DNA from: Candidatus Thorarchaeota archaeon
GTDB lineage: Archaea > Asgardarchaeota > Thorarchaeia > Thorarchaeales > Thorarchaeaceae
NCBI GenBank assembly: GCA_963726195.1
Contig: CAVSBO010000003.1
Location: 531,970 to 595,969 of the forward strand
DNA: 64,000 nt
Reading direction: 5' to 3'
Shown: positions 2,714-24,346 of the stretch, in pieces
How positions within the stretch are numbered: the first letter of the stretch is position 1
Layout of the letters: the number at the start of each line of letters is the position of its first letter
Program-made: the position numbers and the translations under genes
Notes under the pieces: generated by a model
The model's database searches: none
Seen by the model: only the letters and a program-made list of their open reading frames with translations
What the model was told of the DNA's origin: nothing

Positions 2714-3875
2714 TCAGAGGCTGTTTCCAAGCAGAACTGTAACGTCAGCAACATCGATGCTGCTCCCGCTGAGCTCCTTTCCTGCGCTGAGATTGTGCTC
2801 ACAGAATGGGCAGGAGCTGGCGATGATTCGGGCCCCAGTGGCCTCCGCTGTTCTGATTCGGTCTGCTGCAATCCTCTTTGCCAACTCAGGGGCAAACGAC
2901 TTGAGCCCACCACCTGCACCGCAACACATGGCTGCCTCTCGACTGGGGTCCATCTCGACCAGCTCCACGCCGGGTATCGACCGAAGGATGTCTCTAGGAG
3001 CATCATAGACTCCGAGTTCACGCCCCATATGACACGGATCGTGATAGGTGATTCTCATTCCTTGCGCCCGACCCTTTGGTCTGAGGCGACCATCCTTGAT
3101 GAGCTGTTGTGCGAACTCCGTTATGTGAAGGACAGGCGGCAATTCGATTCCAAACCTGTCGGGATAATCTTTCCTCAATGCCCTCAAACAGCCCGCACAA
3201 GACACAACGATTCTTTCCGCTCCGGTGTCGGCGATGCTTTGAGAACACGCTTTGCGCATTTTCCTCTGCCTCCTTTGTTCGTCCCGTTCTAAGCATCACA
3301 GACCCACAACATGGTTCATTCTCCATGACCGCGAAGTCAACTCTTGCGGCCTTCAGTACTTGAGCCGTCGACTTGGCAACATCAGGAAGCCTTAGTCCGG
3401 TAGTGCAGCCGACGTAATAGAGAGTCTCACCACGAGTTGGCACCTTGAAACCCAGCTGACGGACCCAGCTCCTCTTTGCAGAGGCGTTTTCGGAGTAGGG
3501 ATTTCCAGTCCGTGCAATAGCTTGCGCGAGTGAATCGCGGGTGTCATTGGGGATATCCACGAGTGTCGATCTCACTTTCTCGAGGCAATCTTTCGCATTG
3601 AATTCTGCGGCGCATATCTGAGCACAATTCCCACAAAGCGTGCAGGTGTAGAGAGACTCCGCATTCTCTGCAGTTCTCTCGAGCTCGCCATCAAGAAGAG
3701 CAAGAGCGATTTGGACCTTGCCTCTCATGAAGCTGGTCTCAAAACCGGTCGAAGCCTTCCAAACTGGACAGACACCGTTGAAGCCTTCATCTTCGTATAC
3801 GGCGTTGCGGCATATACCACATCTGCGGCATTGCAGAAGATTCTCTCTCAGTTCTTCAAGGTCGATTTCGGTCAT
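2714..3875 (-). CDS. Fe-S oxidoreductase (2x[4Fe-4S] plus CCG domains; HdrD/GlpC/GlcF-like), frameshifted near 3245
   Basis: ORF 3018-3875 carries CRRCGIC, CTLCGNC and CCG. ORF 2714-3259 carries YHDPCH, CCGAGGG and CPFC. The two join into one gene via a single frameshift. Confidence 0.85.
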
Positions 3876-3876
3876 G

Positions 3877-5283
3877 TCATATCCCTGCCATCACACCCGG
3901 ATTCATGATTCCATTCGGGTCGAGTAGCTTCTTCACAGATTTGACGAACTCAACGTATCGTTCAATATCTGTGACACCGTCTACCCAGTACGGTGCGAGC
4001 TTGAAAGGAACTGCACCTGTTGCGTACAAACGAGGCGCGAGCTCCGCATGTGCCTTTCTCACCTTTTGTTCTTCTTCCTTGTCGGCAGGATCGTAGAATA
4101 TCATCGGATACAGATTGTAGGATGCGTGGTCTGTCAGAAAGCCCGCGGTATGACCGAGCAGTCCGTATTTGTCCATGACCTTCCATATTTCCTCGATTGA
4201 CTTGTGCCAGTTTGTGATAGTCTCGTGATGGTACAGTATTCTCCAGTGCCAACCATGGGCATAGGAGGATCTGGCAAAAACCCACATCCGGTCTGTCCAT
4301 TCTCCTCGGGGAAGTTCTCTTATGCCGATGACCTCACCCGTGAGCTCTGAACAGATACGTTTCGCTTCCTCAGCGTCACTATTGAGCTGGTCCTCTCTAG
4401 TCCTTCCAATGGTTAGCGAGACTGTGTAGGGGGGCCATTCGTATTTTGGAATGCCATATTCTTCCCCAAGCATGTCCATGAAGAAGTTCAGAATCCTGCC
4501 TTCGTAGAGTGTGGCGAACAGCGAGTTGACATCATTGTTCCTCAGTTCCAGCAGGAATTTCTCCGCATTGGAGGAATCGTCGAAACCATAGGTGTTGTAA
4601 TCGAAATAATGCATGCGTTTGAAAGCCTTCAGCGAAACCTTGGTAATGATTCCGAAGCTTCCCAGGGAGCCGATGAACAAGCCAGTGATATCGGGGCCGA
4701 ATGCGTACCTGATGAAAGGACCAGGAGCATTCGGGTTCGCCTCGGAACCAGTCTGAATGATTTCTCCATTCGGAAGAACAACTTCCAATCCAAGCACCAT
4801 TTCTGCGATAGGACCGTACGTGCTCGAACCAGGTCCTGCTCCATTAACGGCAACATTGCCAGCCACTGTGCAGACTAGTGAAGACTCAGGATAGATTGGG
4901 ACCCACAGATCATGAGTGCTCAGGAACTTGTCAAGCATCCCGTAGGTTACTCCGGCACCCACAGTGACAGACCGAAGGTTCTCGTACAGAGTTATCTGAT
5001 CAAGCCGCATGAGTTCAACAACGAGACTGTCGGGCTTTGGAATGACCTCCCCTTGGAGACTTGAACCGCCGCCTCTGGGCACAATCGTGATTGCTTGGTC
5101 ATTGGCCAGCTTCAGAATCTGAGAGACCTCTTCGGCATTCGCGGGCCGAACGACTGCGCCAGGCAATACCGCATCATAACCTGTGGAGGCAGATGCCGAG
5201 TACGCAAGCAGAACATCTTTGCGAGTCGAGGCATATTCATTGCCGACTATATCACCCAGTTGCCTGACAATCTTCTGGTCCAA
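3877..5283 (-). CDS. FAD-binding oxidoreductase (VAO/GlcD/alkyl-DHAP-synthase family)
   Basis: VVRPANAEEV, PRGGGSSLQG, GLEVVLPNGEII, FIGSLGSFGIITK and C-terminal LDPNGIMNPG. Confidence 0.85.
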   Translation of the reverse strand: MDQKIVRQLGDIVGNEYASTRKDVLLAYSASASTGYDAVLPGAVVRPANAEEVSQILKLANDQAITIVPRGGGSSLQGEVIPKPDSLVVELMRLDQITLYENLRSVTVGAGVTYGMLDKFLSTHDLWVPIYPESSLVCTVAGNVAVNGAGPGSSTYGPIAEMVLGLEVVLPNGEIIQTGSEANPNAPGPFIRYAFGPDITGLFIGSLGSFGIITKVSLKAFKRMHYFDYNTYGFDDSSNAEKFLLELRNNDVNSLFATLYEGRILNFFMDMLGEEYGIPKYEWPPYTVSLTIGRTREDQLNSDAEEAKRICSELTGEVIGIRELPRGEWTDRMWVFARSSYAHGWHWRILYHHETITNWHKSIEEIWKVMDKYGLLGHTAGFLTDHASYNLYPMIFYDPADKEEEQKVRKAHAELAPRLYATGAVPFKLAPYWVDGVTDIERYVEFVKSVKKLLDPNGIMNPGVMAGI

Positions 5284-5309: not shown

Positions 5310-5636
5310 TTAGAAGATATGCCGAATCTTCATCAGGTCGCTGGCCGAGCCTTTCACTTTCAGCTTACGAGTTAGTATGGCTGAAGCCGCACCCATTTCC
5401 TCCATGAAGAGCTTGCGTATCGTGTCCGCGTCACTCTCAATTCTCATGTCGGGATTGTCGATGGGACCGTCGTGCACCGTTATGTTGTTGTCCTTCACAA
5501 TGAAGTTGTACTGCCTGCCATCTTTCAGAGTGAGCATGGCTGTTCTCTGCCAGCCTTCAATGGCTTCCTTCGTTTTCTCGCGCTCTAGTCCAACGACTAT
5601 TCGCTGTCTCATTACTTCCAGCAAGTCATCAGCCAT
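5310..5636 (-). CDS. SCP2 sterol/lipid-binding domain protein
   Basis: PDMRIESDADTIRKLF...AILTRKLKVKGSASDLMK is the SCP2 signature; 108 aa. Confidence 0.8.
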   Translation of the reverse strand: MADDLLEVMRQRIVVGLEREKTKEAIEGWQRTAMLTLKDGRQYNFIVKDNNITVHDGPIDNPDMRIESDADTIRKLFMEEMGAASAILTRKLKVKGSASDLMKIRHIF

Positions 5637-5678: not shown

Positions 5679-6896
5679 TTAGTTGTTTCCGTTGTCCGAA
5701 ACTTGTCCATTCAGGACATCGTCCAGAACGGCGTTCGGTTCCTGTTTCATCGCGGAGCATGTGCCTCTCGCAGAGGCATGAGTCTCTCCGCTCTTGCAGG
5801 CGTTTTGAGTCTCCACCCAACTGGCGGCGACTGAACGTAAATTCATGGCGGCGTTCAGGTCCCGGTCTGCTTCGAAGCCGCAAACCGCGCACTTGTACGT
5901 TCTCACAGAGAGCGGTATCTCATACTTGACGGCTCCACAGTTGGAGCATCGTTTCGTGGAAGGATAGAATGGGTCCGCCTCCACGACCGTTCCTCCGTTC
6001 CAGTTTGTCTTGTATTCCAGCTGGCGGAGGAACTCTGCTATGCCTGCGTCCGCGAGATGCTTTGCTAGGTGGTGGTTCTTCAGTAGACCGGCTACGTTCA
6101 GGCTCTCCACACCGATGACTGACTTGGTTCTCGCCAGCACCGTTGTGGTCTTGTGCTGGGCATCCCTGCGGATGTTAGCAATTCTGAGTTCAAACCGGGC
6201 CAACCGAATTACAGTCTTGGCACGATTGCTGCTTCTCTTCTTCTTCCTTGCAAGAGACCTTTGAATTCGCTTCTTCTTTCGCTCCAAACGTGAAAGAGGC
6301 CTTGGATTTGCGATAACAGTTCCGTCGCTGACTGTGGCGAGCTTCGAGATACCGACATCAATGCCGACCACGGGACCAGTGTTGTTCGGCACCTCGATTT
6401 CCTCTTCTACACAAAGACTCACAAACCACTTCCCGGCCCTTTCTGACACAGTCACCGACAGAACGTGAACTCCCTTGGACGGCAGGTAGCCCTTTTCCTT
6501 CAGCCGAACAGCGCCGACTCGGGGTAACTGTACCGAATCATGGAATACCCTGATGGTTCCATTAAGCCTGAAACTGCCTACACCGAGTCTTCTGCGCTTG
6601 AACTTCGGGTATCCCGCCCGTCCCTCGAAGAAGCTCTTGAATGCTCTATCGAGGTCTCGGAGTGCTTCCTGCGGCGCGCACTTGGAGACCTCGTACATCC
6701 ATGGGAACTCCGTTTTCTTCAAGGCATTCAGTTGCTTGTGCAACCCGATGGCATTCGACGATGTTCCTGTCTTCTCGTACGCCTCCTTCCGTCGAGCAAG
6801 CCCCCAATTGTATGCAAACCTCGCTGTGCCACAGTGTTTGAGCAGTGTCGTGCCCTGGACGTTGTCAGGGTCCAGCTCTGTCTTGTAGGCTTTCAT
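5679..6896 (-). CDS. tnpB: TnpB RNA-guided endonuclease
   Basis: N-terminal KAYKTELDP...ARFAYNWGL; RuvC motifs VGIDVG, VESL and DRDLNAA all intact; Zn finger CSNC/CAVC. Likely start is ATG 6896. Confidence 0.95.
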   Translation of the reverse strand: MKAYKTELDPDNVQGTTLLKHCGTARFAYNWGLARRKEAYEKTGTSSNAIGLHKQLNALKKTEFPWMYEVSKCAPQEALRDLDRAFKSFFEGRAGYPKFKRRRLGVGSFRLNGTIRVFHDSVQLPRVGAVRLKEKGYLPSKGVHVLSVTVSERAGKWFVSLCVEEEIEVPNNTGPVVGIDVGISKLATVSDGTVIANPRPLSRLERKKKRIQRSLARKKKRSSNRAKTVIRLARFELRIANIRRDAQHKTTTVLARTKSVIGVESLNVAGLLKNHHLAKHLADAGIAEFLRQLEYKTNWNGGTVVEADPFYPSTKRCSNCGAVKYEIPLSVRTYKCAVCGFEADRDLNAAMNLRSVAASWVETQNACKSGETHASARGTCSAMKQEPNAVLDDVLNGQVSDNGNN

Positions 6897-6980
6897 GACC
6901 TTCGTCTTCTTGCGACCTCCGTCGCCGCTCAGAGCAGTTAGAAGCCTGTCCATATGTGATCTCAATTGGATATTAAACCC
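5689..6980 (-). mobile_element. Non-autonomous IS607/IS200-IS605-type element carrying only tnpB (boundaries approximate)
   Basis: tnpB with no transposase. A related motif ATGGACA(A/G)G occurs near both ends (minus strand ~6953 and ~5710). Putative right end ...GGACAACGG at ~5689. A GGRKK-coding remnant sits just upstream of tnpB. Confidence 0.55.
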
Positions 6981-7085
6981 GCCAAGGGTTTGAGTCCCTC
7001 CGACACGAACGGGTTTTCGATGGTCACGCAACCCGCCCTACACGGGCAGCAATGCGAGTGTTTGCACTTGAAATACAAACACCCT

Positions 7086-7189: not shown

Positions 7190-7843
7190 TCACTTCTTTC
7201 TGTATTTCCGGACTATTTCCAAGAACTTCTTGACGTTCTCGGTGATGATGTCATAGCGACCGTCCTTGATGGCCTTGGCATCTGCTATTGCACTGCCTAC
7301 ACCGAGAGCGAATGCTCCCGCTTCAAGCATCGGTCCGGCAGTCTGCAAATCGACGCCGCCCGTTGGAATCAACGGTATATGCGGCAGCGGCGCTCGGACA
7401 GCCTTGATGTAGGCAGCCCCACCGACTTCGCCGCACGGGAACACCTTCACTGCATCAGCTCCCCAAGTGTAGGCTTGGAGTATCTCAGTTGGGGTGAGTG
7501 CCCCCGGGAAGCAAGGCTTAGAATACCGTCTAGCCATCTCTATGAGCTCTTTGGAATATGACGGAGCCACAATGAACTCGCTGCCAGCAAGTATGGCCCT
7601 TCGAGCTGTTTCTGGGTCCAGCACTGTTCCTGTGCCGACAAGCACCTTGTCGCCCACTTTGTCTGTCAGCTTCTGTACGACATCAGTAGCGCCTGGCACA
7701 CTGAAAGTTACCTCAATGATGTTGACGCCACCATTAAGGAACGCATCTGCAACCTTCATCGCAACATCAGCAGAGTCCACTCTGATGATAGGGATGAGTG
7801 CGGTGTCACGAACGAGCTTCATAGCATCTTGTTTGTCCCACAT
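7190..7843 (-). CDS. eda: KDPG/KHG aldolase
   Basis: IEVT, VGTGTVLD, PGALTPTEI, VKVFP (Schiff-base Lys), PTGGV. Confidence 0.92.
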   Translation of the reverse strand: MWDKQDAMKLVRDTALIPIIRVDSADVAMKVADAFLNGGVNIIEVTFSVPGATDVVQKLTDKVGDKVLVGTGTVLDPETARRAILAGSEFIVAPSYSKELIEMARRYSKPCFPGALTPTEILQAYTWGADAVKVFPCGEVGGAAYIKAVRAPLPHIPLIPTGGVDLQTAGPMLEAGAFALGVGSAIADAKAIKDGRYDIITENVKKFLEIVRKYRKK

Positions 7844-7854
7844 GTTGTTATCGC

Positions 7855-8849
7855 CTACCTCTGAATGCGAAGTCCTTTGCCGCCCTTTACGAGCGCCTCG
7901 ACTTCGGATTTGTAGATATACGCAAGGTCACCGGGCACTGAGTGCTTCAACGCAGACAGAGCAGCACCATAGTCGACTGCCTGTTGAATGTCCTTCAGCT
8001 CAAGGTAGCCGTAGATGAAACCTGCACTGCATGAATCGCCTGCTCCAAGCCTGTCGACTATCTCAACGTCGTATTCGGCGCTCGGATAAATCTTACCTTT
8101 CGAGTAAGCAAAGACTGACCACTTATTCAGCCAGACCAGTGGAGTCTTGCGGAGGGTTATGAGAACGACTTCGAAACCAAACTTGTCTGCAAGCTTCTTT
8201 GCTACCTCCTGATAGTCTTTGCCTTCTATGCCATAGACAACCTTCGTGTCTTCTTCAGTCGTGATTAGGATGTCAATGTTCTTAGACGCTGGCTCAGTGA
8301 ACGCTCGAGCCTGCTCTGGAGTCCAAAGCTTGCTTCTGTAGTTGACATCATAGGAGACCTTGCAGCCCTGTTCTTTTGCTGTCCTCATAAGCTTCTTCCG
8401 TCGCTTTTGCACACGAAGGACTGATTGCGGGAGTTATTCCGCTGGTATGGAAGAGCCTCGTGCCCTTGAGAATCTCTGCCCAACGAACCTCTCCGGGCTT
8501 GATCTTGCTTATGGCAGACTGCTCCCTGTCATATATCACTCGCTGAGCCCTTGGTGCCGAGCCGAATTCTACAAAGTAAGTTCCGCAGCGGCTGTTTGCG
8601 TCCCACAGAATATAGGACGTATCGACGCCCTGTTCCCTTGCTTTGTTGCGAATGAAATGACCAATGGAGTTGTCTCCAAGCTTCGTCACATACGCGGTTT
8701 TCAGGCCCATTCTCGCACAGGCAACCGCGACATTCATCTCCGCGCCGCCCGCATTCGTATTGAAGTCTATTTGCCTGCTCAATGCGCATGAAGTTGGGAG
8801 GGGAGAGTCTTAACATCACCTCTCCGAAGGTGACAACATCGTATCCCAT
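7855..8849 (-). CDS. kdgK: 2-keto-3-deoxygluconate kinase (PfkB family), two frameshifts (~8770, ~8400)
   Basis: VVTFGEVMLRLSP, GGAEMNVA, FHTSGITPA, SYDVNYRSKLW and IVDRLGAGDS are spread over three overlapping ORFs. Confidence 0.85.
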
Positions 8850-8941
8850 TGAATCACACTCGGATGAGTTGTTTAACTGAGTGAGATACGCTCTAGGCCG
8901 ATGTTAAACTTGTCGAAGTGTTGCTTTCATCTGCAACTGTT

Positions 8942-11293
8942 TCAGGCTACGCCGCTGCTGAATTCGGTACGAGCAATCACCTCGTCCTGAACAAACGGAT
9001 CTAGTTCGATGAAGTATGCACTATACCCTGCCACCCTAACTATCAAGTCTCTGTGCTGGAGAGGGTGAACCTTTGCATCCTCAAGCGTCTCTCGAGAGAG
9101 AACGTTGAACTGGACGTGCAATCCGCCAAGCTTGAAGTAGGCATCGATGAGTCCTATGAAGTTATCACGACCGGCCGCAGATGAAAAGATCTGGGGGCTG
9201 AACTTCATGTTGTACAGGGTTCCATTGTAACATAGGCCATGACCCAACCGGGCCACTGACTTCATGGCGGCAGTGGGACCGTGGACGTCCCTATTGTGAG
9301 CTGGTGAGACTCCATCTGACAGCATTACTCCCGCACGGCGACCGTCGGGCGTAGCTCCCACGGACTCTCCTTGAGGAATATACATCGACACTGAGAATAG
9401 CGCTGCATGATAGGGACCATTGCGGGTTGTCATCCTGCTCTGTACAGATTCGCAAAATGCCTTTCCAATTTCACGAGCTATCATGTCAACACGTTCAATG
9501 TCATTGCCATACTTGTCGGGGTCGTTCTCGAATCGAACCCTCATATCTTCAAAGCCCTCGTAGTTCCTAGAGAGAGCATTCAGAATCTGTTCCATTTTCA
9601 CCTTCTTGGTTTCGAAGACTTGCTTTCTCAAGACTGAAAGTGAATCTGTGGCAATCGCAATACCAACGCCCTGAATTCCTCCAGCGTTGTACTTTGCTCC
9701 GCCCTCCTGCATTGTCCGGCCTGTTTCGACACAGCCCGTGAGGAGAGATGAGATGAAGGAGGTAGGTGCGAGCTTTGCGTGGACTTCGGCGGCAACGCGG
9801 TCCGCCTTGGTGAGAAGATCGACTGTGTAGTCAAGCTGCTTTCTATATGCACCCCAGAGATCGTCATAACTCTTGAAAATGCGAGGATCGCCGGTCTCGA
9901 TTCCTACCATCATGCCGGTCTTTGGGTCCTTGCCGTTGTTCAAAGTGATTTCAAGGACCTTGGCGAAGTTGACGAAACCGATGTTGGGCCTGACGTCTGC
10001 CTCTCCCTCGATTATAGGTTCGACACAACCGAGGATTGAGTAGTCAAAGGTCTCCTTGGTGTCAACGCCCTTCTTCTTCATCATCGGGATAATGACTTCA
10101 TCATTGAACAGACCGGGCATGCCAAGACCCTTTGACACAACTTCAACAACCTTGAGCTTCGCATCCTTGGGCGTCTTGCTGTGCCAGCGGAAGGAGACCG
10201 TGGGCTGCGTGACTCTCATATTCTTCGTTGCCTCGAGGGCAAGATATGTGACCTCGTTGCTTGCATCGTTTCCGCGCTCGTCTTGTCCACCGATTGTCAG
10301 GTTCTGGAACATCGGGTGCCCCGCGAATGCAACGCTATAGTACTCATCTCGAAGCTTGATTAAGGAAGAGAACTTCATCCAGAGCATTTCGACCAGCTCT
10401 AGAGCCTGGTCTCTATTGATTTTTCCCGACTTGACATCCGCAGCATAGTACGGATACACGTATTGATCAAAGCGGCCCGTTGATATCGAGTGGCCATTAC
10501 CTTCGGTCTGAACGAGAAGCTGGACGAACCAGAAGGACTGCAATGCCTCTTGGAAGCTGGATGCAGGCTTCATCGGCACAGTACTACATATCCTTGAGAT
10601 CTCTTGTAGTTCCTTCTTACGTTGTGGGTCTTTTTCTTCATTCGCCATCTTCGCCGCGAGGGTGCTGAATCTTCGAGCAAAGCGGTCGATAGCGTTGATT
10701 TCGATTTCCACAGCATTATAGAATGAGGTCTTCTCAGGATTGTTGCGAGCTTGACTTCGCAGCTTCATCACCTGTCCTAAGACTGATCCGAGACCTGTCT
10801 GGATTACCTTCTTGTAGTCAACAATGACATGTCCTATCCCTGTACCGGGGGCACCAATGGTGAAGAGACCCGCTTGAGCTGCTCGCTGAGATTCCTGGGG
10901 CATGGTCTGAGCACAAATCTCAGCAGTGCTCTTGCCGCGCCAATACTTGAAAACCTCTCGCAGCTTGTCCTTGTCGTCCGGCCCTAGGTCGAACTTCTCT
11001 GTCCGCCTCTTGTCGAATCTGTCTAGCTCCTTTTCAATCCAAGTCCAGCTATACTCAGGGAAAATCTGACAGGACCTTGGGGTAGGACCCATGTTACCGA
11101 CTATCAGCTCACCGGGCTGAATCTGTATGGTCATGTTGTCCAAGACGTAGGCGAATGCCTTCGCCAATCTATCCTTCGTTGGCTCGTTCTCGTGTTGGCG
11201 CAAGTATTGTGTGAATAGGTACGCTCTTTCCGAGGATATGGTCGGGCGAGAGTTGAGCATACGGTCTCGCATCGCCATTGTGCGGGAGGTCAT
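8942..11293 (-). CDS. Glycyl radical enzyme, glycerol/propanediol-dehydratase-like eliminase clade
   Basis: Gly loop LIVRVAGYSAYF; Cys loop GCVEP (single Cys, not the CC of PFL); GIGH, GNGHSISTGRFDQY and FAGHPMFQNL. TATA-like TATATA at ~11317 favours a start at 11293 or 11278. Confidence 0.9.
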   Translation of the reverse strand: MTSRTMAMRDRMLNSRPTISSERAYLFTQYLRQHENEPTKDRLAKAFAYVLDNMTIQIQPGELIVGNMGPTPRSCQIFPEYSWTWIEKELDRFDKRRTEKFDLGPDDKDKLREVFKYWRGKSTAEICAQTMPQESQRAAQAGLFTIGAPGTGIGHVIVDYKKVIQTGLGSVLGQVMKLRSQARNNPEKTSFYNAVEIEINAIDRFARRFSTLAAKMANEEKDPQRKKELQEISRICSTVPMKPASSFQEALQSFWFVQLLVQTEGNGHSISTGRFDQYVYPYYAADVKSGKINRDQALELVEMLWMKFSSLIKLRDEYYSVAFAGHPMFQNLTIGGQDERGNDASNEVTYLALEATKNMRVTQPTVSFRWHSKTPKDAKLKVVEVVSKGLGMPGLFNDEVIIPMMKKKGVDTKETFDYSILGCVEPIIEGEADVRPNIGFVNFAKVLEITLNNGKDPKTGMMVGIETGDPRIFKSYDDLWGAYRKQLDYTVDLLTKADRVAAEVHAKLAPTSFISSLLTGCVETGRTMQEGGAKYNAGGIQGVGIAIATDSLSVLRKQVFETKKVKMEQILNALSRNYEGFEDMRVRFENDPDKYGNDIERVDMIAREIGKAFCESVQSRMTTRNGPYHAALFSVSMYIPQGESVGATPDGRRAGVMLSDGVSPAHNRDVHGPTAAMKSVARLGHGLCYNGTLYNMKFSPQIFSSAAGRDNFIGLIDAYFKLGGLHVQFNVLSRETLEDAKVHPLQHRDLIVRVAGYSAYFIELDPFVQDEVIARTEFSSGVA

Positions 11294-11337
11294 AAGAACC
11301 ATAGGCGCGTGAAGACTATATATCATTCATCATGTGG

Positions 11338-12507
11338 TCATCTGCTCTTCTTGAGCAGCTTGGGCAAGTAAGAGTCGAGGCGCCCCAGAGTATCCTGAAT
11401 CACCTCGGTAGATACTGCATAACACAGTCTCAGGTATCCTTCTCCGTATTTCCCGAACCCTGAACCATGCACCAAGACTACGCCAGTGTCATCAAGAATC
11501 TTCACTGCTAAGTCGAAAGACTTCATCTTGTACGCCGAAACGTCTGGGAAGACATAGAATGCTCCTCCAGGAGGGTCGACCTTGATGCCTTCGATTGACT
11601 GGAGACCTTTTGTGATGACGTCTCTTCGCTTTCTGAACGTATCGAGCATCGTCTTGACACAATCTTGGGGGCCGTTGACCGCGGCCTCGGCAGCTTTCTG
11701 GGAAATCGCTGTCGGCATCGACAGGATGTGCTCCTGCAGTCTGACCATTGCGGCAACTACCTCTTCTGGCCCGATTGCGAAACCTATTCTCCAGCCGGTC
11801 ATCGCATAGCTCTTGGAGAACGAGAAGAGCGTCACAGTCCTTTCCTTCATACCGGGCAGAGAACCAATGAAGAGTGGCTTCTCTGTTCCGTACCGGAACT
11901 TCTCGTATGCTTCGTCAGCAAGCACGAAGATGTTCTTCGCAATTGCCAACTCTGCTATCTTCTTGAGTTCCGAGCTGGGGATCGTGGCTCCAGTTGGGTT
12001 GTTTGGATAGTTGATGACAAGAAGCTTCGTCTTCTTTGTAATGAGTTTCTCAATGTCCTCGGCGCGGACTGCAAAGTCGTTTTCCTTCTTTAGCTGAACA
12101 GGAACTGGAACGCCGCCAGCGAGCATGATGTGAGCATAATGACTAACAAAGCCGGGGTCGGGATAGATGACTTCGTCGCCCGGGTTCACGAGAACAAGAT
12201 TGGCGAGTAAAAGAGAGCCCATGCCACCAGCAGTACAGATAATCTCTTTCTCCGGATTGGCCTCGATTCCATTCTCCTTCTTGGCTTTCTTTGCGAGTGC
12301 TTCCCGAACCTCGATAAGTCCAGCGTTGTGAGTGTATTTGGTGTAGCCATCGTCAATGGCTTTCTTGGCTGCCGCCTTGATGAAGTCAGGCGTGTCAAAG
12401 TCTGGCTGACCCACGGTCAGATCGAGGATGTTCGGGCGGCCTCGCGCCATGTTGTACATCTTGCGGATTTCAGAAGCGGGGACAAGCTTGGTTCTGTCTG
12501 CGAGCAT
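11338..12507 (-). CDS. PLP-dependent aminotransferase class I/II
   Basis: VGQPDFDTP, NYPNNPTGA, DEAYEK, SFSKSYAMTGWRIG. Confidence 0.92.
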   Translation of the reverse strand: MLADRTKLVPASEIRKMYNMARGRPNILDLTVGQPDFDTPDFIKAAAKKAIDDGYTKYTHNAGLIEVREALAKKAKKENGIEANPEKEIICTAGGMGSLLLANLVLVNPGDEVIYPDPGFVSHYAHIMLAGGVPVPVQLKKENDFAVRAEDIEKLITKKTKLLVINYPNNPTGATIPSSELKKIAELAIAKNIFVLADEAYEKFRYGTEKPLFIGSLPGMKERTVTLFSFSKSYAMTGWRIGFAIGPEEVVAAMVRLQEHILSMPTAISQKAAEAAVNGPQDCVKTMLDTFRKRRDVITKGLQSIEGIKVDPPGGAFYVFPDVSAYKMKSFDLAVKILDDTGVVLVHGSGFGKYGEGYLRLCYAVSTEVIQDTLGRLDSYLPKLLKKSR

Positions 12508-12708: not shown

Positions 12709-13155
12709 GTGCGAAAAGTTAGCATGGTTACTCTTGCCAGCGCACACGCAATATACGTGGAAGCAGTACGGAAGTCGATGGGAGGGAAAGGCCTCACCAC
12801 CATAGGCGAAGCCAATCGACTTCACGGCATCGAACTCGGAAAAGCGGGCATCAAGGAAGGCGGTCTCCGAAAAGGCGACCTCAAGTCGATTATTGAGTTC
12901 TTCATTGCGGCACATCCGTACTTCGGTTTTGAAATTGAACTTCAGAAAGCAACGGACAAGGAACTCGAGATGAAGGTCACCTACTGCCCTTGGATAGACA
13001 CGTTCAAGGCCGAACATGCGGGACAAGATATCTGTGATTGGGTCACGAAGATGGATGAAGGAATTGGTCAGGCAGTTGACCCCAAGGCGAAGATGACATT
13101 GCCTAAGTGCATGATGCGCGGCGATGAGTACTGTGTGTATCGTTACTCAAAGTGA
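12709..13155 (+). CDS. ATC-hydrolase/V4R-like small ligand-binding protein
   Basis: VTYCPW...CDWV...D...LPKCMMRGDEYCVYRY pattern of the L-2-amino-thiazoline-4-carboxylate hydrolase-like family. Start uncertain. Confidence 0.65.
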   Translation: MRKVSMVTLASAHAIYVEAVRKSMGGKGLTTIGEANRLHGIELGKAGIKEGGLRKGDLKSIIEFFIAAHPYFGFEIELQKATDKELEMKVTYCPWIDTFKAEHAGQDICDWVTKMDEGIGQAVDPKAKMTLPKCMMRGDEYCVYRYSK

Positions 13156-13190: not shown

Positions 13191-13856
13191 ATGAGCAAGA
13201 AAGCAAGCATAATTGACCGATGCAAGAAGCTGTACGTGCCTGCGCTTTCCGATGGCGCAGACGAGATTGGACTGCGCAACGTCTGCATGGATAGCAGAAT
13301 TGCACCCGTAACCAAGAATAGGATTGTCGTGGGTTTCGCCAGACCGGCCAAGCTCGTGCCCACAGCCCCTCGAATCCCCTACAATGAAGTTCAATTGGAG
13401 GCTTTCATGAAGATAGCGACCGAGGCCAAGAAGGATGATGTCGTGGTCATCCAGATGTCTGGGGCCACAGACTGCTCAGGTTGGGGTCAGATAATGACCA
13501 AGATTAGCATTTCGCGCGGGCTGCGTGGGGCTGTCGTTGACGGCACGGTAAGAGACGTAGATGAGACGGACAAGCTCGGTTTTGCGGTGTTTGCGAGGGG
13601 TCGTCATCCTGGAACCATGCGGGCAAGGTTAGACATCGAGTCTATTGGCGAGCCGACAGTGTGCGGCGGAGTGACCGTGCATCAGGGAGACCTCCTCTTT
13701 GGAGATGGAGACGGTATTGTTCTGATTCCAGAGAACAGAACAGAAGAGGTCTTGGCAGCGGCTGAACGCGTGGTTGCAACGGACAAGTGGTGGGGGAGTA
13801 TGCTTGACCAAGGCAAGGACCCACAGGAACTTCACAAGCAGAAACCCATCCCTTAG
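13191..13856 (+). CDS. RraA/HMG-aldolase family protein
   Basis: WGQIMT, GAVVDGTVRD, CGGVTVHQGDLLFGDGDGIVLIP. Confidence 0.85.
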   Translation: MSKKASIIDRCKKLYVPALSDGADEIGLRNVCMDSRIAPVTKNRIVVGFARPAKLVPTAPRIPYNEVQLEAFMKIATEAKKDDVVVIQMSGATDCSGWGQIMTKISISRGLRGAVVDGTVRDVDETDKLGFAVFARGRHPGTMRARLDIESIGEPTVCGGVTVHQGDLLFGDGDGIVLIPENRTEEVLAAAERVVATDKWWGSMLDQGKDPQELHKQKPIP

Positions 13857-13991: not shown

Positions 13992-15120
13992 CTAGGAGAT
14001 GGGGTAAGTGCCCTTCTTCTCGGCGTAGTCGTACAGGTACACTATCTTCTCGGGTGTAGAGTCATCCTGAATATTGTGGGCCGGCGCCAATATGTAGCCG
14101 CCGCCCGGTGCTAGAGCCTTGAGCCTCTTGTCCACTTCTGCTCGAAGGTCATTCTTTGTACCTTGTGAGGACATTGCATGCTGCAAGTCAATTGCTCCGT
14201 GGAAAGTCAGCCTGCTGCCGTACTTCTTCTTGAGTTCTGCAGAGTCCATACCTTTTGCCAGCGGCTCGAATTGGATTCAGGATGTCAACGCCCACCTCTA
14301 TGAGGTCGTTGATCATCGGTTCTATTGCTCCACAGCTGTGATACAGAATCTTGACATTGGGTGCTCTCCTGTGAATGTCTTGGTATATCCGCACATGTCT
14401 CGGCTTAACCAACCGTCGGTACATGGCCGGACTCATAATGAGCCCATTCTGGTGCCCAAGGTCGTCACCCACTTGCACCACATCTAAGTACTCTCCAACT
14501 TCGTCCAAGAAGACGCGATTCATCTCCAAAGCTAGGTCCATGCATTTGCCCATCATAGCCTCAGCGAGCTTCGTGTGCTCGACCAAGTCTACAAGAAACT
14601 TATCGAAGCCTCTCATGAAATGAGCACACATCTCGAAGACACCCCAAGGACCCCCGACCATACCGACAACTGCATACTCACCTTTCTCGTGCAGCTGCTT
14701 GGCCCATTCGACCACACCTTCCATTCTTGATGGATCGTCAGGGTCCATCCATTCGTACTCTTCTATCTGCTCGACTTCTGTGGCGTCTGCCCAAGGGTAG
14801 TACACGACCTCCCAGTACGGGCCATACCATTTTCCTCGGAAACCCATCTCACTATCCGTCGAGCCGTCCGGATAGGTCTTCGACTTGAAGGACGATGCTT
14901 CGTTCATATAGACACGTCTGAAATCCAAGTGGAGTCGGCGCAGCATTTCCTCAGATATCTTCCAAGAACTCATTATGCCCCATTCTTGGGTCTCAGGGGC
15001 CGTAATCTTGAGATAGTCGCGGACTTTCGCATACGCGGCTGGGGTGATCCAGAAGTCCAATGGAACCCTGTCCGGTTCCTCATGGTCGACTATCTTGTAG
15101 TATCTCTCTCGAGGCTTCAT
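13992..15120 (-). CDS. Uroporphyrinogen decarboxylase/MtaA-CmuA methyltransferase family protein, frameshifted near 14265
   Basis: HEEPDRVPLD, GDDLG, YHSCG and GVDILNPI, continued by LKKKYG...FHGAID...GGYILAPAHNIQ in ORF 13992-14249. Confidence 0.85.
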
Positions 15121-15275
15121 CAGGAGGACCCGACGGAAATCCACTATTAAAAGAGCTGCATACGAAACAATGCCGTCTTTAACAAGACTATTCCCGCGGA
15201 TTTAATAACTGGGAGTTTTCCTTGCTCGACCAACGTTATCCCATGTAAGGGGAGCATCATCTGGAGAGACATGCG

Positions 15276-16658
15276 ATGGTTGATGTTTCGAAAGTAACGC
15301 AGCTGCTCAAGCAGGCCGTGGATCCGAAACGCGTCACTGACCGGGATTTTGACCTAGTGGCATATAGCAGGGACTTGAGCCCTGCGAGACAGAAGATGGC
15401 CACACATATCGTAATGCCTGAGAGTCGTGACGAGGTTCGCCGGATTCTTCGAGTTGCATCTGACAGCAACGTCCCTGTCTACATTCGGGGAGGAGGCACG
15501 TCACACTGGGATGCTTATCTTCCTCAGGAGCCTGGAATACTCCTGGACATGAGCCTCATGAACCAGATACTCGAAATCAATGATAGAGATTTGACAGCAA
15601 CCGTCCAGCCGAACTGCACTTGGGCGAAGCTAGACGAAGAGCTTAGGAAGAAGGGTCTGACCTATCTTTGCAGCGAAGCGGGCGGCCCGGCAATGACAAT
15701 CGGAGGTTCAGTGATGAAAGCCGGCGGCGGTCCGCACGGCACTGCGAAGTTTGGGTTCCATGGCAATCAGGATGTCATAAGCCTCGAGATGGTATTGCCC
15801 AATGGCGACATCGTAGAAACCGGGTCAGCAGCTTGGCCATCAGCCGGTAAGTTCAAGCGGCAGTGTGTCGGACCCGACCTAGCTGGTCTCTTCATCGGTG
15901 CAGAAGGAATCCTCGGCATATGCACGGAGATTACTCTGAGAATCCGTCCAGCAACTGACATCAAAGAAAGGTTGGTTATGACAATGAAGACCCTTGATGA
16001 TGTCATCGAGTGAGGCCATTTCGTCAACCATTTTGTGGGCGATGAGTATCTTCAAGGCTTCTATCTCTGGGTGGATCCAAATTCACCTGAAACCTTCCTC
16101 GTGATGATGGACATTTTTGGCTACGAGAAAGAAATAGTTGACCACAGGAAAGCACGCATCTTGGAGAAAATCGAAGAGCTAGGAGGAACACTCGGTGACA
16201 GAGCTCCGGCCGATGACTATTATGGAAGAATTCTGACTGGGCTCACCGACATCTTCACTGCCGGTGTCTGGCATTTCTTCGGCTCGGGTTCACTGAGAAT
16301 AGATGACATAAAGTTCCTCTATCGTGTATGGCGCGAGGAGCTCATTGAGAAAAGAGGTTACAAGAAGGCGGGATTTGGAGGCCAGGTGCTTCCGAGAGAT
16401 TGGTTGGCATTCATGGTAACGAACTACAAAGAGCCCGCAGAATGGGACGAAATCATCAAAATCTCGGACGAAATCAATGATATTGTTCTGAACGGGCCCG
16501 TCGCTCCGTACGGAATCGGCGGTCGCGATGGCCTTCGACCGTTCCTTGAGAAACGAGACACCGGATACTACCGTCTACTGAAGACTATCAAGAAAGCGGT
16601 TGATCCGAAGGATATTCTGCAACGCGGCATGTTTATTCGAAAGGAGGATTTGATGTGA
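15276..16658 (+). CDS. FAD-binding oxidoreductase (GlcD/VAO family) with an in-frame TGA at 16011-16013
   Basis: IRGGGTS, LEMVLPNGDIV, FIGAEGILGI and C-terminal IKKAVDPKDILQ. ORFs 15276-16013 and 16035-16658 are in the same frame and separated only by one TGA. Confidence 0.8.
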
Positions 16659-17851
16659 GGATCGAGCAATATCGTGACATGATTTACGCCTGCGGAAGAT
16701 GTGAGTTCTGCCGAGGCACAGAGTTTAGTGATAGGTGTCCGCAGATCTTCACCCAGCGATGGGAGTCTTCGACGGCCCGAGGACGAATGGCCATCGCTCG
16801 CGCTATTCTCGAGGGCAAGCTCGATTATACAAAAGACCTCAGAGAGCGAGTCTTCGGATGTTTTCTATGTGGACGGTGCAGAGAGGAGTGCAAGAAAGCA
16901 GCTAAGATAGACATCGTTGCGATAACGAAAGCCATGCGTGCTGATTTCGTTGACAAGGGAATCGGCGCTCCTGAAGATGGCAGCAAGATGACAAATACGA
17001 TGTCTCAGAAGGGCAACATCTTTGCAGACCCGGCCGCTGAACATACAAAGTGGGCTCAAGGTATCAAGTTCCAAAAAGGATCTGGCACCTTGTTCTTTCC
17101 AGGTTGCCTCGCTAGTCACAGATTCAAAGAGAAGACCCGCATCGTTGTTCAGGTGCTACAGGCGGCTGGTTACAAGCTGGACTTTCTTGGAGATGACCAG
17201 AAGTGCTGCGGCACACCCATGTGGATTACAGGCGATGTCAAGGCGGCAAAGCAATGGGCCCAGGATTACGTCAAGAAGTTGAAGGCACGAGGAGTCAAGG
17301 AGATAATCACGCCATGTCCAAGCTGCTTCAGAGCCTTCGATGAGGAGTACACTCAGCTGCTTGGCTTGAAAGAACCTCCATTCAAGGTGAGACATACTAG
17401 CCAAGTGCTCGAGGAGATTGTGACTCAGAAGCGACTTCCACTGAAGACTAGTGTAGCAAAGGTTGTCACATATCACGACCCGTGTGAAATCGGTCGCTAC
17501 AGGGGAATGTACGACCAAGCTCGGAAAGTACTAACAGCGATTCCGGGCGTTCAGTTCAAGGAAATGTCTCGCATCAGGGAACAAGCGTTCTGCTGTGGCG
17601 GCGGAGGCAGCTTGAAGATAATGTACCCCGATTACTCGCAACAGGTCTCTGAAGAACGGCTGAAGGATGCCCTTCAGACGACTGCTTCTGTCCTTGCGAC
17701 CATATGTCCAGCCTGCGAACTCAATCTGACTCATGCAGCGTACAAAGCTGACGCTCCGCTGCGAGTAGCTGATGTTGCAGAGATTGTTGCGGTATCAGCG
17801 GGGCTAGCAGACAAGGCGATTCTTGAGTCGGACTATGTCTCTGAGGACTGA
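16655..17851 (+). CDS. Fe-S oxidoreductase (CCG-domain, HdrD/GlcF-like)
   Basis: CGRCEFC, CFLCGRC, CCG, CPSC, YHDPCEIGR, CCGGGG, CPAC. GTGA overlap with the upstream gene. Confidence 0.88.
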   Translation: MRIEQYRDMIYACGRCEFCRGTEFSDRCPQIFTQRWESSTARGRMAIARAILEGKLDYTKDLRERVFGCFLCGRCREECKKAAKIDIVAITKAMRADFVDKGIGAPEDGSKMTNTMSQKGNIFADPAAEHTKWAQGIKFQKGSGTLFFPGCLASHRFKEKTRIVVQVLQAAGYKLDFLGDDQKCCGTPMWITGDVKAAKQWAQDYVKKLKARGVKEIITPCPSCFRAFDEEYTQLLGLKEPPFKVRHTSQVLEEIVTQKRLPLKTSVAKVVTYHDPCEIGRYRGMYDQARKVLTAIPGVQFKEMSRIREQAFCCGGGGSLKIMYPDYSQQVSEERLKDALQTTASVLATICPACELNLTHAAYKADAPLRVADVAEIVAVSAGLADKAILESDYVSED

Positions 17852-19289: not shown

Positions 19290-19523
19290 TACAAACCGCG
19301 CCTTTTCGATACCGTTCATGTCCGCACCAGATGAAAATTCGATTGAGTGCGGCGAAACTGGTAACCACACGGTGCCGCTTTGGTGTTGCGGCTGGAAGAA
19401 GGAGCCAGTTACTCCTTTAATCTGTGGCCTGTCCTAAGCTTTAAGTACCAGTATTTGCAGATTGTCTTCATCACGGAACTCGGACAAAGAGTTCGTGAAT
19501 GTAAAAATGGAGAAACGCGCAAG

Positions 19524-21074
19524 ATGAGCGACAGTAAACTCCTCTTCGTGCGAGAGAGTTCCGGTCTAGTCAAGGAAGTTAACACAGGCTTTGCCTTGTT
19601 GCTTCCTATTGCCTTGACTTTAGGGCCATGGTTCGCGTACGGTGGTCCACAGATTTCAACGTGGTTCCCGGGCACGACCCTAGTGATAATGTTCGCCTTA
19701 GGATCATTCGCTGTGTTCTTTGAGGCGATCGCACTAATGGTCCTGATGCTCTCAATGCCGAGGTCAGGAGCTTCCTACTACTTTACAGGAAGAGGCCTCT
19801 CACCAATCTTCGGTGTTATGGAAGGTTGGCGAAGCGTAATCACAAACCCTGTCTTCAGAGGAATTGGAAGCTTCCTAGCTGTGGAGGTATTCGCAGGCGG
19901 ACTCTATGTTATGGGTAGCGCAGCCGGCGACGCTGGACTTATAGCTCTTTCAGCTTTCATGTTCCAGCCAGTACCGCTGTTTGCATTCGCTGCAGCAAGC
20001 ATCTTCATAGGGTTCATCTTTGGTTACCTAAGCGTCAAGTGGCTAGGTTGGTTTGTGATAATACTGGGCTTAGTGAACATTCTGGCAATCGTGATTTCCG
20101 ATGTTGCCTTGCTGACTACACCTATAGGAGGTGCAGCTGGCCAGGCAAACTGGGATGCAGTCTTCGGCGCAGGAAACTACGCTTCCCTCCAAGCACTACA
20201 CCCTGACGTGTCTGCATGGACGACCTTCAACTGGGGTTCAGTTGGACCAGCACTCATCCTCACTGTAGGAATGATGTGGCCCTATTTGATCATGCCAGTT
20301 GCCGGTGAGGTTGCACAGCCAAGCAGGAACATCCCGCTTAGCAACCTAGGTGGTTGGCTGGGCATTGCTGTATTCTTCATTCTCTCAGGCTATGCACTCG
20401 AGAGCAGCATGGGCTCATTCCTCTACCAGAACAACCTCGCAGCTACCGGTGTGTTCCCAGGTTGGGGTAACTTCGCCGCAGTTGCAATGAGAGGTGGAGC
20501 AGCTGGTTGGTTCGTAATCTTCAGCCCGATCTATGCAAGCATCCTTGACTCACCAAGCAATGCGCTATGGGTGACAAGGCCATTCCACTCAATGGCTATG
20601 GACCGGTTCTGTCCTGAGGTGTTCGCAAGCGTTCATCCCAAGTACCATGTGCCACACGTCAGCCTGTACTTCTGGCTGATACTCTCGTTGGGCACACTGA
20701 CCTACGCATCCCTTCTGCAGATCTTCTTCGGCACTGCCTTGTCTGCACTCGTGGGTGTCGGATACACCTACGTCTTCATCAGATGGCAGATGGCCCTCGC
20801 TGCAGTCGGACTGCCGTACTATCGGCCGACCCTCTGGGAGCGCAGTGGTGCATGGAAGCTCTTTGGCATTCCACTGGTTTCAATCGGTGGTATTGTATCA
20901 GGCTCCGTGTTCTTCTGGGCAATAGTCGCCTATGTGCCAACATTGCCCTTTGAGGTGGCATTCACAGTCTTCGTTTACCTGTGGGGCCAGCTCATGTACC
21001 TGTACTACGGTGCTAAGAACAAGGCCAAGGGCATTGAGATGTCTGCTATATTCGGACAGCTTCCACCAGAGTAA
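19524..21074 (+). CDS. APC-superfamily amino acid/amine permease
   Basis: FVRESSGLVKEV N-terminus, SMPRSGASY, AGEV..P.RNIP, DRFCPEVFASVHPKYHVP, about 12-14 TM segments, C-terminal IFGQLPPE. Confidence 0.85.
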   Translation: MSDSKLLFVRESSGLVKEVNTGFALLLPIALTLGPWFAYGGPQISTWFPGTTLVIMFALGSFAVFFEAIALMVLMLSMPRSGASYYFTGRGLSPIFGVMEGWRSVITNPVFRGIGSFLAVEVFAGGLYVMGSAAGDAGLIALSAFMFQPVPLFAFAAASIFIGFIFGYLSVKWLGWFVIILGLVNILAIVISDVALLTTPIGGAAGQANWDAVFGAGNYASLQALHPDVSAWTTFNWGSVGPALILTVGMMWPYLIMPVAGEVAQPSRNIPLSNLGGWLGIAVFFILSGYALESSMGSFLYQNNLAATGVFPGWGNFAAVAMRGGAAGWFVIFSPIYASILDSPSNALWVTRPFHSMAMDRFCPEVFASVHPKYHVPHVSLYFWLILSLGTLTYASLLQIFFGTALSALVGVGYTYVFIRWQMALAAVGLPYYRPTLWERSGAWKLFGIPLVSIGGIVSGSVFFWAIVAYVPTLPFEVAFTVFVYLWGQLMYLYYGAKNKAKGIEMSAIFGQLPPE

Positions 21075-23093: not shown

Positions 23094-24209
23094 CTACACA
23101 AGGCTCTCGATTGGTTTGTATGGTAAGTCAAAACCAAAGTGCTTCGGTCCAAGCACCTCAAGCCCTTTGGGCTCCCTGAAGACCGGAACACCCTTCATTC
23201 CAATCACTGTAACGTTACGTCCGTTGTCCAGATCAGTATTCGTAATTGGTTCGCCAGTCTTTGAGTCAATGACCTCGATTATGTCGGGGCTGGTGACCCA
23301 AGGCTTGTCATCAAGCCAAGATACATGGTTTTCATTCTTGAAGAAGATTCTCATCTTGCTGCCGGGCTTCAGTCCGCTGCCCTTTATCGTGGTTTCGCCC
23401 CACATGTATCCTTCTCTGTTCTCCCACTTCTTGGCAATGACTTGGCCCTTGAACAGGATCCAGCCGCCCACGCTTTCCACTATTTTCGCTGCGGCATCAT
23501 CACCGGACTGTTTGCTCTCCCGGATGATTTTTCCAACCTTGTAGCTCTTACTCAGAGTTCCTGGGATAATTGCGCGACGGAAATCAGATCCCTTCACGGG
23601 GAAAGCGACATTGCCCACGCGTCCCCAAGCCACCTCGCTCAAGGCTTTCGATATGCGTTCGCCCATCTCATAGTTGATGATCTTCGTGATTATGCTCGTG
23701 TTGCCGTACCAATCAATCAGGGCCAAAGGAGCCATCGAGTAACCAAGCACACAGACAGTATTCTGACAAATCTCTGGGACTGCACGGCCAGAGTAGTCTC
23801 CGTCAACACAAGGCACGCCATGCTTTACAGCGGCGTCGATAGGTGCGGGCGTGTTGACTCCACCTAGTTCGAAAGGTGCCACAGCAGTGAACTTCACACC
23901 CATGTGCTTCTCAAGAATATCGAGCCCCTGTGCAAGCTCCTTCTCGAATGACGACCAAGGAAACCTCTTTCTAGTCTTCTCAATTTCGGGAGTGGGCGGT
24001 GCAATCGTGCCTGAGTAATAGGCGCATGCAACCCAGTCATTGTCCTTTACCTTCGCCGTGTCGACAATCTCGATTTTCTTTCCCGCGTCGACGTGAGGAT
24101 AAAGCATGTCCAGGCCGATTTGCCTTGTGCCTCCGCCGCCAGTGCCAAAGAATGAACATCCGGCGGTGAGATCTTCAACGTCAGTTCTTGATTTGAGTAT
24201 CAACGCCAT
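23094..24209 (-). CDS. DUF917 family protein (thiohydantoin-desulfurase-like), paralog 1
   Basis: GCSFFGTGGGG, ELGGVNT, DGDYSGRAVPEI, FKNE, SPDII, GPKHFG. Confidence 0.88.
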   Translation of the reverse strand: MALILKSRTDVEDLTAGCSFFGTGGGGTRQIGLDMLYPHVDAGKKIEIVDTAKVKDNDWVACAYYSGTIAPPTPEIEKTRKRFPWSSFEKELAQGLDILEKHMGVKFTAVAPFELGGVNTPAPIDAAVKHGVPCVDGDYSGRAVPEICQNTVCVLGYSMAPLALIDWYGNTSIITKIINYEMGERISKALSEVAWGRVGNVAFPVKGSDFRRAIIPGTLSKSYKVGKIIRESKQSGDDAAAKIVESVGGWILFKGQVIAKKWENREGYMWGETTIKGSGLKPGSKMRIFFKNENHVSWLDDKPWVTSPDIIEVIDSKTGEPITNTDLDNGRNVTVIGMKGVPVFREPKGLEVLGPKHFGFDLPYKPIESLV

Positions 24210-24346
24210 GATTAAACACCTTTAAGCTGGTTGGATGAAGTTTAAACAGCGGCCTCTATATATTCTCGATGGAGGGTGTTGTGGAACCGGACGTTCAGGC
24301 TGATGGCGTCACGTCACTTGTTCACTGACTTCTGCAAATCACTTTC

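Follow-up and report, generated by a model that had tools for sequence, protein, structure and literature searches.

The oxygen-sensitive glycyl radical enzyme (GRE) encoded in the 64,000-nucleotide stretch of uncultured Candidatus Thorarchaeota DNA analyzed here (the window, i.e., the whole stretch, G000:C3:531970-595969) is best explained, from its residues and its gene neighborhood, as a 1,2-eliminase or isomerase-type enzyme, specific to the Thorarchaeota-type lineage, that would work in the same pathway as the 2-keto-3-deoxygluconate (KDG) kinase-like protein and the 2-keto-3-deoxy-6-phosphogluconate (KDPG) aldolase encoded behind it. More specifically, it may carry out a radical 2,3-elimination on a sugar acid and thereby feed KdgK and Eda, a reading that in our estimate falls just short of probable. 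The genome amounts to 2.9 Mb in 19 contigs and is 88.9% complete. The four genes concerned are the following:

11338..12507, minus strand: aminotransferase (AT), class I/II AspAT-type, 389 aa, first gene of the operon (Pfam Aminotran_1_2, 264 bits)
8942..11326, minus strand: glycyl radical enzyme, 794 aa (PF02901 PFL-like, 714 bits; PF01228 Gly_radical, 114 bits)
7855..8849, minus strand: KDG-kinase-like PfkB kinase, split over three frames (Pfam PfkB on two fragments)
7190..7843, minus strand: KDPG/KHG aldolase (Eda), 217 aa (PF01081, 152 bits)

An earlier note on this DNA had described a co-directional run AT > GRE > kdgK > eda. The four genes do follow one another in that order on the minus strand, with intergenic gaps of 11, 92, and 11 bases, but the kinase is not one open frame here (see below).

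Residues, pocket and relatives of the glycyl radical enzyme

The best matches of the GRE among solved structures were the glycerol dehydratase (GD) of C. butyricum (1r8w, 667 bits), a propanediol dehydratase (PD) of the GRM3 type (9rco, 657 bits; described as such in the available part of PMC12756279) and the Roseburia PD (5i2a, 645 bits), with weaker matches to CutC (562 bits), PflD (509), HypD (494), A. fulgidus PFL2 (448), TutD (318), MasD (315), and PFL (165). In a HMMER alignment to GD (1r8w) the CXE stretch is kept (Cys434-Val-Glu436), as is the NGHS stretch, and His166, invariant in 29 clade members, aligns with His164 of GD. The Gly loop reads RVAGYSAYF, with Gly767, and its RVAGY aligns to the Gly loop of GD, the RVxG motif being present. 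All the motifs named in the earlier note were found in the translation (GIGH at 163-166, NGHS at 277-280, GCVEP at 433-437, and ADVRPNIG at 443-450). CXE is given as the shared mark of GRE eliminases and isomerases in the available text of a June 2026 review of these enzymes (PMC13450708), where Glu435 of GD deprotonates the carbinol and His164 protonates the leaving hydroxyl. Since the nearest solved structures are GD and the PDs and both the CXE stretch and the His are kept, the window GRE would be of the eliminase type.

The likeness to these dehydratases extends over the full length of the protein, although identity is only ~41–43% and the distal substrate positions carry other residues. 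The stretch ADVRPNIG had been placed opposite the WHD motif of GD, with an Arg that might bind a carboxylate. An Arg indeed replaces Trp445, but the register was off by one residue: G444-W445-H446-D447 of GD aligns with V445-R446-P447-N448, i.e., Trp445 is changed to Arg, His446 to Pro, and Asp447 to Asn. Further changes from GD to the window GRE are Tyr339 to Phe340, Tyr640 to Phe644, Gln636 to His640, and Ser642 to Val646, and both Phe340 and Val646 equal the propanediol dehydratase residues at those positions of the alignment. The GD residues at the replaced positions, which include the GWHD stretch and the tyrosines, line the glycerol pocket. Arg446, Asn448, and His640 are invariant in the 29 clade members. 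The pocket signature of glycerol and 1,2-propanediol dehydratases was not found in the window GRE, which has VRPN for GWHD and Phe for both Tyr339 and Tyr640.

For comparison we used a scan of species representatives that gave 231 GRE relatives, the best 80 of which were kept. These comprise 52 Asgard loci, from genomes named Thor-, Hermod-, or Promethearchaeota and with GREs 64–89% identical to that of the window, and 28 PD-type Clostridia loci with GREs 38–41% identical. GWHD is kept in 27 of the 28 Clostridia loci, which are all 27 where the Cys loop was found.

None of the NCBIfam equivalogs was reached by the window GRE (HpfG 612 against a cut-off of 1000, PRK09983 597/1109, HypD 592/1100, HpsG 564/1000, and CutC 561/1050), and the generic TIGR01774 was the sole NCBIfam model passed, with 748 over 678. 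Among 1.84 billion representatives at 50% identity, the clade appears as a single cluster (69% identity, 1261 bits), the nearest protein outside it being 41% identical (665 bits), and only one of the 60 nearest representatives reaches an equivalog (CutC). In a FastTree phylogeny built from the window GRE, eight clade members, and every representative exceeding 700 aa, the clade has a support of 1.0 on a long stem and is nested among dehydratase-type GREs. With no equivalog reached and an isolated, supported clade in the tree, the enzyme lies outside the characterized clades and probably forms a distinct specificity group. Its distribution is similarly narrow. In a sample of 301 genomes of the phylum, orthologues with at least 64% identity were found in 53 genomes besides the window's own, all of them in the same family (f1), and the other families had GRE paralogues at 35–41% only.

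The sister group (support 0.945) consists of four clusters, namely Emergencia/Eubacterium, Bacillota, Synergistaceae, and, as the fourth, P0122. Sister-clade relatives of P0140 with 50–54% identity were present in one genome only among samples of 400 Clostridia genomes and 150 genomes of the order. This genome (L099, G347:C1:1779000-1798900) has two paralogous sister-clade GREs 8 kb apart, each with its own activase, adjoining a MutL-like (PF13941) protein, a B12-binding protein, and POR genes, a context that hints at amino-acid fermentation, although it is unspecific. A metagenome scan with the sister-clade alignment retrieved very diverse loci, many with CXQ rather than CXE and 23 of 32 with an adjacent activase; neither kdgK nor eda was found at any of these 32 loci. 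The window GRE is the sole PFL-like gene of its genome and is not linked to an activase. Its cognate radical SAM activase (TIGR02494, 323 bits over a cut-off of 174) is located on another contig (G000:C4:374981-375844), between transporter genes on one side and a GNAT on the other.

In the literature, GREs of Hermodarchaeota and Thorarchaeota have been put forward as alkyl- or benzylsuccinate synthases. Zhang et al. (2021) called Asgard GREs Ass/Bss on 29–33% identity (available part of PMC8163825), and the source record of P0078, a member of the present clade that shares 68% identity with the window GRE, calls the protein "Benzylsuccinate synthase alpha subunit". The X-succinate synthases, including benzylsuccinate synthase (BSS) and (1-methylalkyl)succinate synthase (MASS), do belong to the same superfamily and share the single catalytic Cys. 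However, the matches to TutD (318 bits) and MasD (315 bits) reach half the scores of the diol dehydratases (645–667 bits), the clade is nested among dehydratase-type GREs, and the window enzyme carries the CXE and the dehydratase His. BSS and MASS carry small subunits, as stated in the accessible sections of PMC13450708, whereas no small Fe-S (HiPIP-like) subunit genes adjoin the GRE in any of the 52 loci, its neighbors being the AT, the kinase, and the aldolase. By the authors' own account, in the part of PMC8163825 available, the Asgard homologues of Zhang et al. are not monophyletic, and they may not be of the window clade. For the window GRE, we find a succinate synthase hardly credible.

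Partner enzymes, gene order and co-occurrence

The nearest characterized relatives of the kinase, which has the PfkB fold, are KDG kinases. Using as query the intact orthologue of L010, a Thorarchaeota metagenome-assembled genome (MAG) that is the closest relative of the window (GRE 89% identical), the best solved match was the KDG kinase of T. maritima (2afb, 267 bits), followed by the T. thermophilus and Sulfolobus enzymes (1v19, 147 bits; 2v78, 120 bits; 1wye, 116 bits). Eda passes TIGR01182 with 185 bits over a cut-off of 156 and has no second copy in the genome, in which a further KDG-type kinase was not found either. The AT has its best solved matches in the Asp/aromatic aminotransferases of P. 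horikoshii (1gd9 and 1dju, 314 bits); it has two paralogues elsewhere in the genome, with 39 and 31% identity, and the operon copy is therefore a dedicated one.

The absence of IlvD/Edd and of enolase-family sugar-acid dehydratases, noted before for the window, extends to the whole genome as searched. It contains no PF00920 (IlvD/Edd) gene, no enolase-superfamily dehydratase (the single MR_MLE_C match is enolase itself), and no UxuA, UxaC, or Mannitol_dh_C (UxuB-type) gene. No known KDG- or KDPG-forming enzyme (Edd/IlvD, enolase-type, or UxuA) was thus detected in the genome, the altronate/galactarate dehydratase family not having been searched.

The gene order recurs widely in other genomes. 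Across the 52 Asgard loci the GRE has the AT beside it at 46, the kinase at 45, and Eda at 40, and all three at 38. When only loci with sufficient contig flank are counted, the values are 43 of 45, 40 of 42, and 40 of 42, and the complete set of three partners is seen in 40 of 42, most of the misses being contig ends (the exceptions are L030, L038, and L048). Median gaps between the matched stretches are 52, 86, and 12 bases. None of the 28 PD-type Clostridia loci has an AT, kinase, or Eda neighbor. The four-gene arrangement in the Asgard loci is far beyond chance. Two of the three findings that the earlier note had named as refuting its proposal, a GRE inside a characterized clade and a synteny confined to this genome, are thereby contradicted.

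The operon is also part of a wider conserved array, which reads (an arrow after each name giving its direction, with > for that of the operon) permease <, Mrr-like <, c9 >, CCG <, GlcD <, URO-D-like >, RraA-like <, ATC-hydrolase-like <, then AT >, GRE >, kinase >, Eda >, followed by SCP2 >, GlcD >, CCG > and, further on, a MIPS-like gene. In the window, the neighbors of the operon in this island are:

2714..3875, minus strand: second CCG protein, with one frameshift, conserved downstream neighbor
3877..5283, minus strand: second GlcD-like oxidase, conserved downstream neighbor
5310..5636, minus strand: SCP2, conserved downstream neighbor
12709..13155, plus strand: ATC-hydrolase-like protein (Pfam), divergent from the operon, at 31 of the 52 loci
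13191..13856, plus strand: RraA-like protein (Pfam), divergent from the operon, at 37 of the 52 loci
13995..17851: URO-D/MtaA-like protein (minus strand, one frameshift), GlcD-like FAD oxidase (plus strand), and CCG/Fe-S protein (plus strand), conserved neighbors
19380..21074, plus strand: APC-family permease (Pfam AA_permease, 47 bits)

Co-occurrence was scored in 76 genomes of family f1 besides the window's own. GRE and Eda orthologues were both present in 52 of them and both missing from 20, with the GRE alone in one and Eda alone in three. The genome with only the GRE is 66% complete and those with only Eda 62–74%, whereas several of the 20 with neither are 95–98% complete. The APC permease follows the same pattern, being found in 47 of the 52 family genomes with GRE and Eda and in none of the other 24. 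As the island behaves as one block, this co-occurrence partly reflects linkage, and the related genomes are not independent of each other. More telling is one genus (g6), because there the GRE lies apart from the AT, kinase, and Eda genes. One of its genomes has all four genes intact (G689), another has a GRE with three stops together with a frameshifted Eda (G463), and a third, 98% complete, has none of them (G483).

The same data have to be weighed for a reading in which the GRE acts on a small diol or other small molecule and stands beside the kinase and Eda only through block inheritance of the island. The nearest solved relatives are, after all, C3 diol dehydratases, Phe340 and Val646 match the residues of propanediol dehydratase, the GRE can sit apart from AT > kinase > Eda, and gain or loss concerns the entire island, with its permease, oxidases, and URO-D-like gene. 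What makes such independence quite improbable to us is the tight operon spacing that persists across loci whose GREs are 64–89% identical to that of the window, and the fact that in the genus with unlinked genes these are still kept, broken, or absent together. Moreover, the window GRE has other residues in place of the Trp445, His446, and Asp447 found in diol dehydratases, and we saw in the island none of the genes for aldehyde handling or microcompartments that typically accompany such enzymes.

Another possibility is that the AT, a pyridoxal-phosphate enzyme, and not the GRE, supplies the 2-oxo acid, from an amino acid or amino sugar acid that the APC permease would take up; in that case the GRE would act earlier on that amino acid (for instance by a HypD-like hydrogen abstraction next to the amine) or provide a second entry to the same lower pathway. 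Such a role would fit the position of the AT, a dedicated paralogue that heads the operon in 46 of 52 loci, its staying together with the kinase and Eda where the GRE is elsewhere (L101 and L102), and the permease that accompanies the cluster in 47 of 52 genomes and is missing from the 24 without it. Amino-acid fermenters (Bacillota and Synergistaceae) are the source of the sister clade of the GRE, one member of which lies beside the MutL-like and B12-binding proteins, and most of the characterized neighboring eliminases act on hydroxyprolines according to the available portion of PMC13450708. On the other hand, the AT is closest to ordinary Asp/aromatic aminotransferases, the Pfam match of the permease is weak (47 bits) and says little about its substrate, and the sister-clade loci are very diverse, many with CXQ and none with kdgK or eda. 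Nor is any natural amino acid known to give a KDG-type acid by transamination, and overall we consider this scheme unlikely.

Proposed pathway and precedents

In the pathway we favor, that of a radical sugar-acid eliminase, the unlinked activase would install the radical on Gly767, and the thiyl at Cys434 would take a hydrogen from C2 of a 2-hydroxy sugar acid. Glu436 would deprotonate the 2-OH while His166 would protonate the leaving group at C3 (OH, a ring ether, or an amine), and return of the hydrogen would give a 2-keto-3-deoxy acid of the KDG or KDGal type. The kinase would phosphorylate this acid and Eda would split the product into pyruvate and a triose phosphate. In a variant, phosphorylation by the kinase would come first, and the GRE would take the place of Edd, acting by radical chemistry on the phosphorylated acid. 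Family memberships, catalytic residues, gene order, co-occurrence, and the lack of a classical KDG-forming enzyme are observed, whereas we infer the substrate, the sequence of steps, and what the AT does.

A known system close to this scheme is the semi-phosphorylative Entner-Doudoroff branch of archaea and bacteria (gluconate dehydratase, KDG kinase, and KDPG aldolase), with which the window shares the adjoining KDG-kinase-like PfkB kinase and Eda. It differs in having a GRE in the dehydratase slot and an AT leading the operon, in a genome without IlvD/Edd or an enolase-type dehydratase. In turn, GD and the PDs resemble the window GRE in the CXE Cys loop, the His, NGHS, and the Gly loop, while in the window the activase is not adjacent and the neighbors are an AT, a kinase, and an aldolase instead of aldehyde-handling genes. 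The nearest precedent for the logic of the pathway is provided by YbiW/PflD, isomerases of 1,5-anhydrohexitol 6-phosphates. They are GREs of the CXE type that use a sugar derivative as substrate, and their keto product is subsequently cleaved by an aldolase (PMC13450708, section 5.7). These enzymes are bacterial, however, give only 489–509 bits to the window GRE, and use a phosphorylated cyclic ether as substrate and a different aldolase.

The earlier note knew of no described GRE with this activity, and a literature search likewise found no paper on a GRE that uses a sugar acid as substrate or has a link to KDG or KDPG; the words "gluconate" and "keto-3-deoxy" occur nowhere in the available text of the June 2026 review (PMC13450708). 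According to the same portion of that review, every PFL-like GRE of known function is bacterial and the archaeal clades lack validation. It is possible, although clearly less than probable, that a role can be assigned to the clade described here, which would be a first for an archaeal PFL-like GRE: as a radical 2,3-eliminase it would convert an aldonate (or its 6-phosphate, 3,6-anhydro, or 2-amino derivative) to KDG or KDPG, replacing the Edd/gluconate-dehydratase step of the Entner-Doudoroff pathway in strictly anaerobic Asgard archaea, in a GRE reaction class not yet described. New in this work are the corrected residue register against GD, the evidence on the broken kinase (contigs and substitution rates, see below), the permease that varies with the cluster, and the identity of the sister clade.

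Several observations weigh against a sugar-acid eliminase. Phe340, Phe644, and Val646 are hydrophobic where GD is polar, which would not be expected for a fully hydroxylated hexonate. The kinase stays under the cut-offs of the NCBIfam KDG-kinase equivalogs (308/440 for the haloarchaeal KDG/KDGal kinase, and 181/400 and 85/400 for the others), and a route of gluconate supply was not found in the genome, where no SGL lactonase exceeds its cut-off and the three MDR alcohol dehydrogenases that pass Glu_dehyd_C do so on an unspecific model. The zinc alcohol dehydrogenase (Thr-DH or sorbitol-DH-like) seen beside some of the related loci has no orthologue in the window genome. All genome-wide absences refer to a genome that is 88.9% complete, and the absent routes are in that sense not proven to be missing. 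The ~20-kb island is gained or lost as a block, and the permease tracks it equally well. In two genomes of genus g6 (L101 and L102) AT > kinase > Eda are adjacent without the GRE, so that these three could form a complete module on their own. Lastly, four genes are disrupted in this assembly, namely the kinase, the URO-D-like gene, and one each of the CCG and GlcD-like genes. We hold our estimate for the sugar-acid eliminase just short of probable because the substrate is a predicted one, because several pocket positions are hydrophobic, and because AT > kinase > Eda persist without the GRE in those two genomes.

If true, the proposal would extend GRE chemistry by a radical eliminase of sugar acids and explain how the otherwise orphan KdgK and Eda are fed in these Asgard archaea. 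It would also speak against interpreting such Asgard GREs as succinate synthases that activate hydrocarbons, a point relevant to claims of anaerobic alkane and aromatic degradation by Asgard archaea. The hypothesis is concrete and can be tested with coupling enzymes from the operon itself, as KdgK and Eda would give a simple pyruvate read-out.

Frame breaks in the kinase and other genes of the window

The kinase frame is shifted by two inserted bases, located by alignment to L010 and compared with contigs of four public runs (X1, X2, X3, and X5):

8389..8390, no strand: one extra A of the two, left out in the X1 and X3 contigs
8766, no strand: second extra base, left out in the X1, X3, and X5 contigs

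The L010 kinase is intact, with 330 aa, and 91% identical over most of the window copy. The X1, X3, and X5 contigs come from relatives at about 91–97% identity to the window stretch. The X2 contig is near-identical (one difference in 517 bases) and aligned up to 8389, after which it has 11 loose letters equal to window positions 8391-8401; since these follow directly after 8389, X2 is without the extra A. Its coverage stops short of 8766. With the two inserted columns dropped, the ratio of nonsynonymous to synonymous substitution rates (dN/dS) of the kinase against L010 is 0.031, compared with 0.041 for the AT, 0.071 for the GRE, and 0.021 for Eda. Because contigs of other runs lack both bases and the kinase has such a low dN/dS, the insertions are probably assembly errors or very recent lesions.

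Other genes of the island are broken as well. The URO-D-like gene has one frameshift (~14254-14270), as has the downstream CCG/Fe-S gene (3246-3253), and the GlcD-like FAD oxidase at 15276..16658 has an in-frame TGA at 16011-16013. Selenocysteine could be ruled out for this codon, as L010 has Leu at that position, and it represents a nonsense change or a base error instead. Between eda and SCP2 there is a TnpB gene of the IS200/IS605 type (5679..7031, minus strand, 450 aa; OrfB_IS605, Cas12f1-like TNB, and HTH), without an adjoining TnpA, at a site where L010 has only ~280 bases. Outside the island, an aldehyde:ferredoxin oxidoreductase (AFOR) is split into 30856..32112 and 32087..32782. The assembly seems to be rich in small errors or young pseudogenes.

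If all of these changes were real (the frameshifts in the kinase, the breaks in other island genes, and the insertion of TnpB), the pathway would be decaying in the window genome. Five lesions in ~15 island genes (two in the kinase, one each in the URO-D-like and CCG genes, and the TGA of the GlcD-like gene) would be consistent with decay, as would the position of the kinase insertions outside long homopolymers, the TnpB gene that L010 lacks, and the genuine decay seen in related genomes such as G463. Nevertheless, both inserted bases are missing from contigs of other runs, including, at 8389/8390, the one with a single difference in 517 bases, the kinase dN/dS is 0.031, and genes outside the island are also split (the AFOR at 30856..32782), a pattern that fits an error-prone assembly. 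We therefore regard decay of the pathway as rather unlikely.

Seven of the GRE orthologue matches (G662, G677, G608, G674, G501, G683, and G545) have exactly one TGA in the aligned stretch, which seems to lie near the 5' end, before the true start, as judged from open-frame lengths, with selenocysteine as a conceivable alternative.

Apart from the island, two S-Me-THD-like (PF06032/PF20906) genes and an Asp/Glu/hydantoin racemase are clustered at 23094-28428, beside an MFS transporter and a luciferase-like oxidoreductase, and may form a hydantoin-type catabolic set. An Eco57I/N6_Mtase methylase frame with an overlapping TaqI_C specificity-domain frame (33579-35844, plus strand) has the appearance of a type IIG restriction-modification gene interrupted by a frame change. 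A GH3-family protein (auxin-amido-synthetase-like, PF03321/PF23571/PF23572; 575 aa, 59610-61337, minus strand) occurs here in an archaeal host, and a Roadblock/LC7 domain protein (47299-48027, plus strand) and a RadA of the Rad51 family (62983-63999, plus strand, at the window end) fit an Asgard archaeon.

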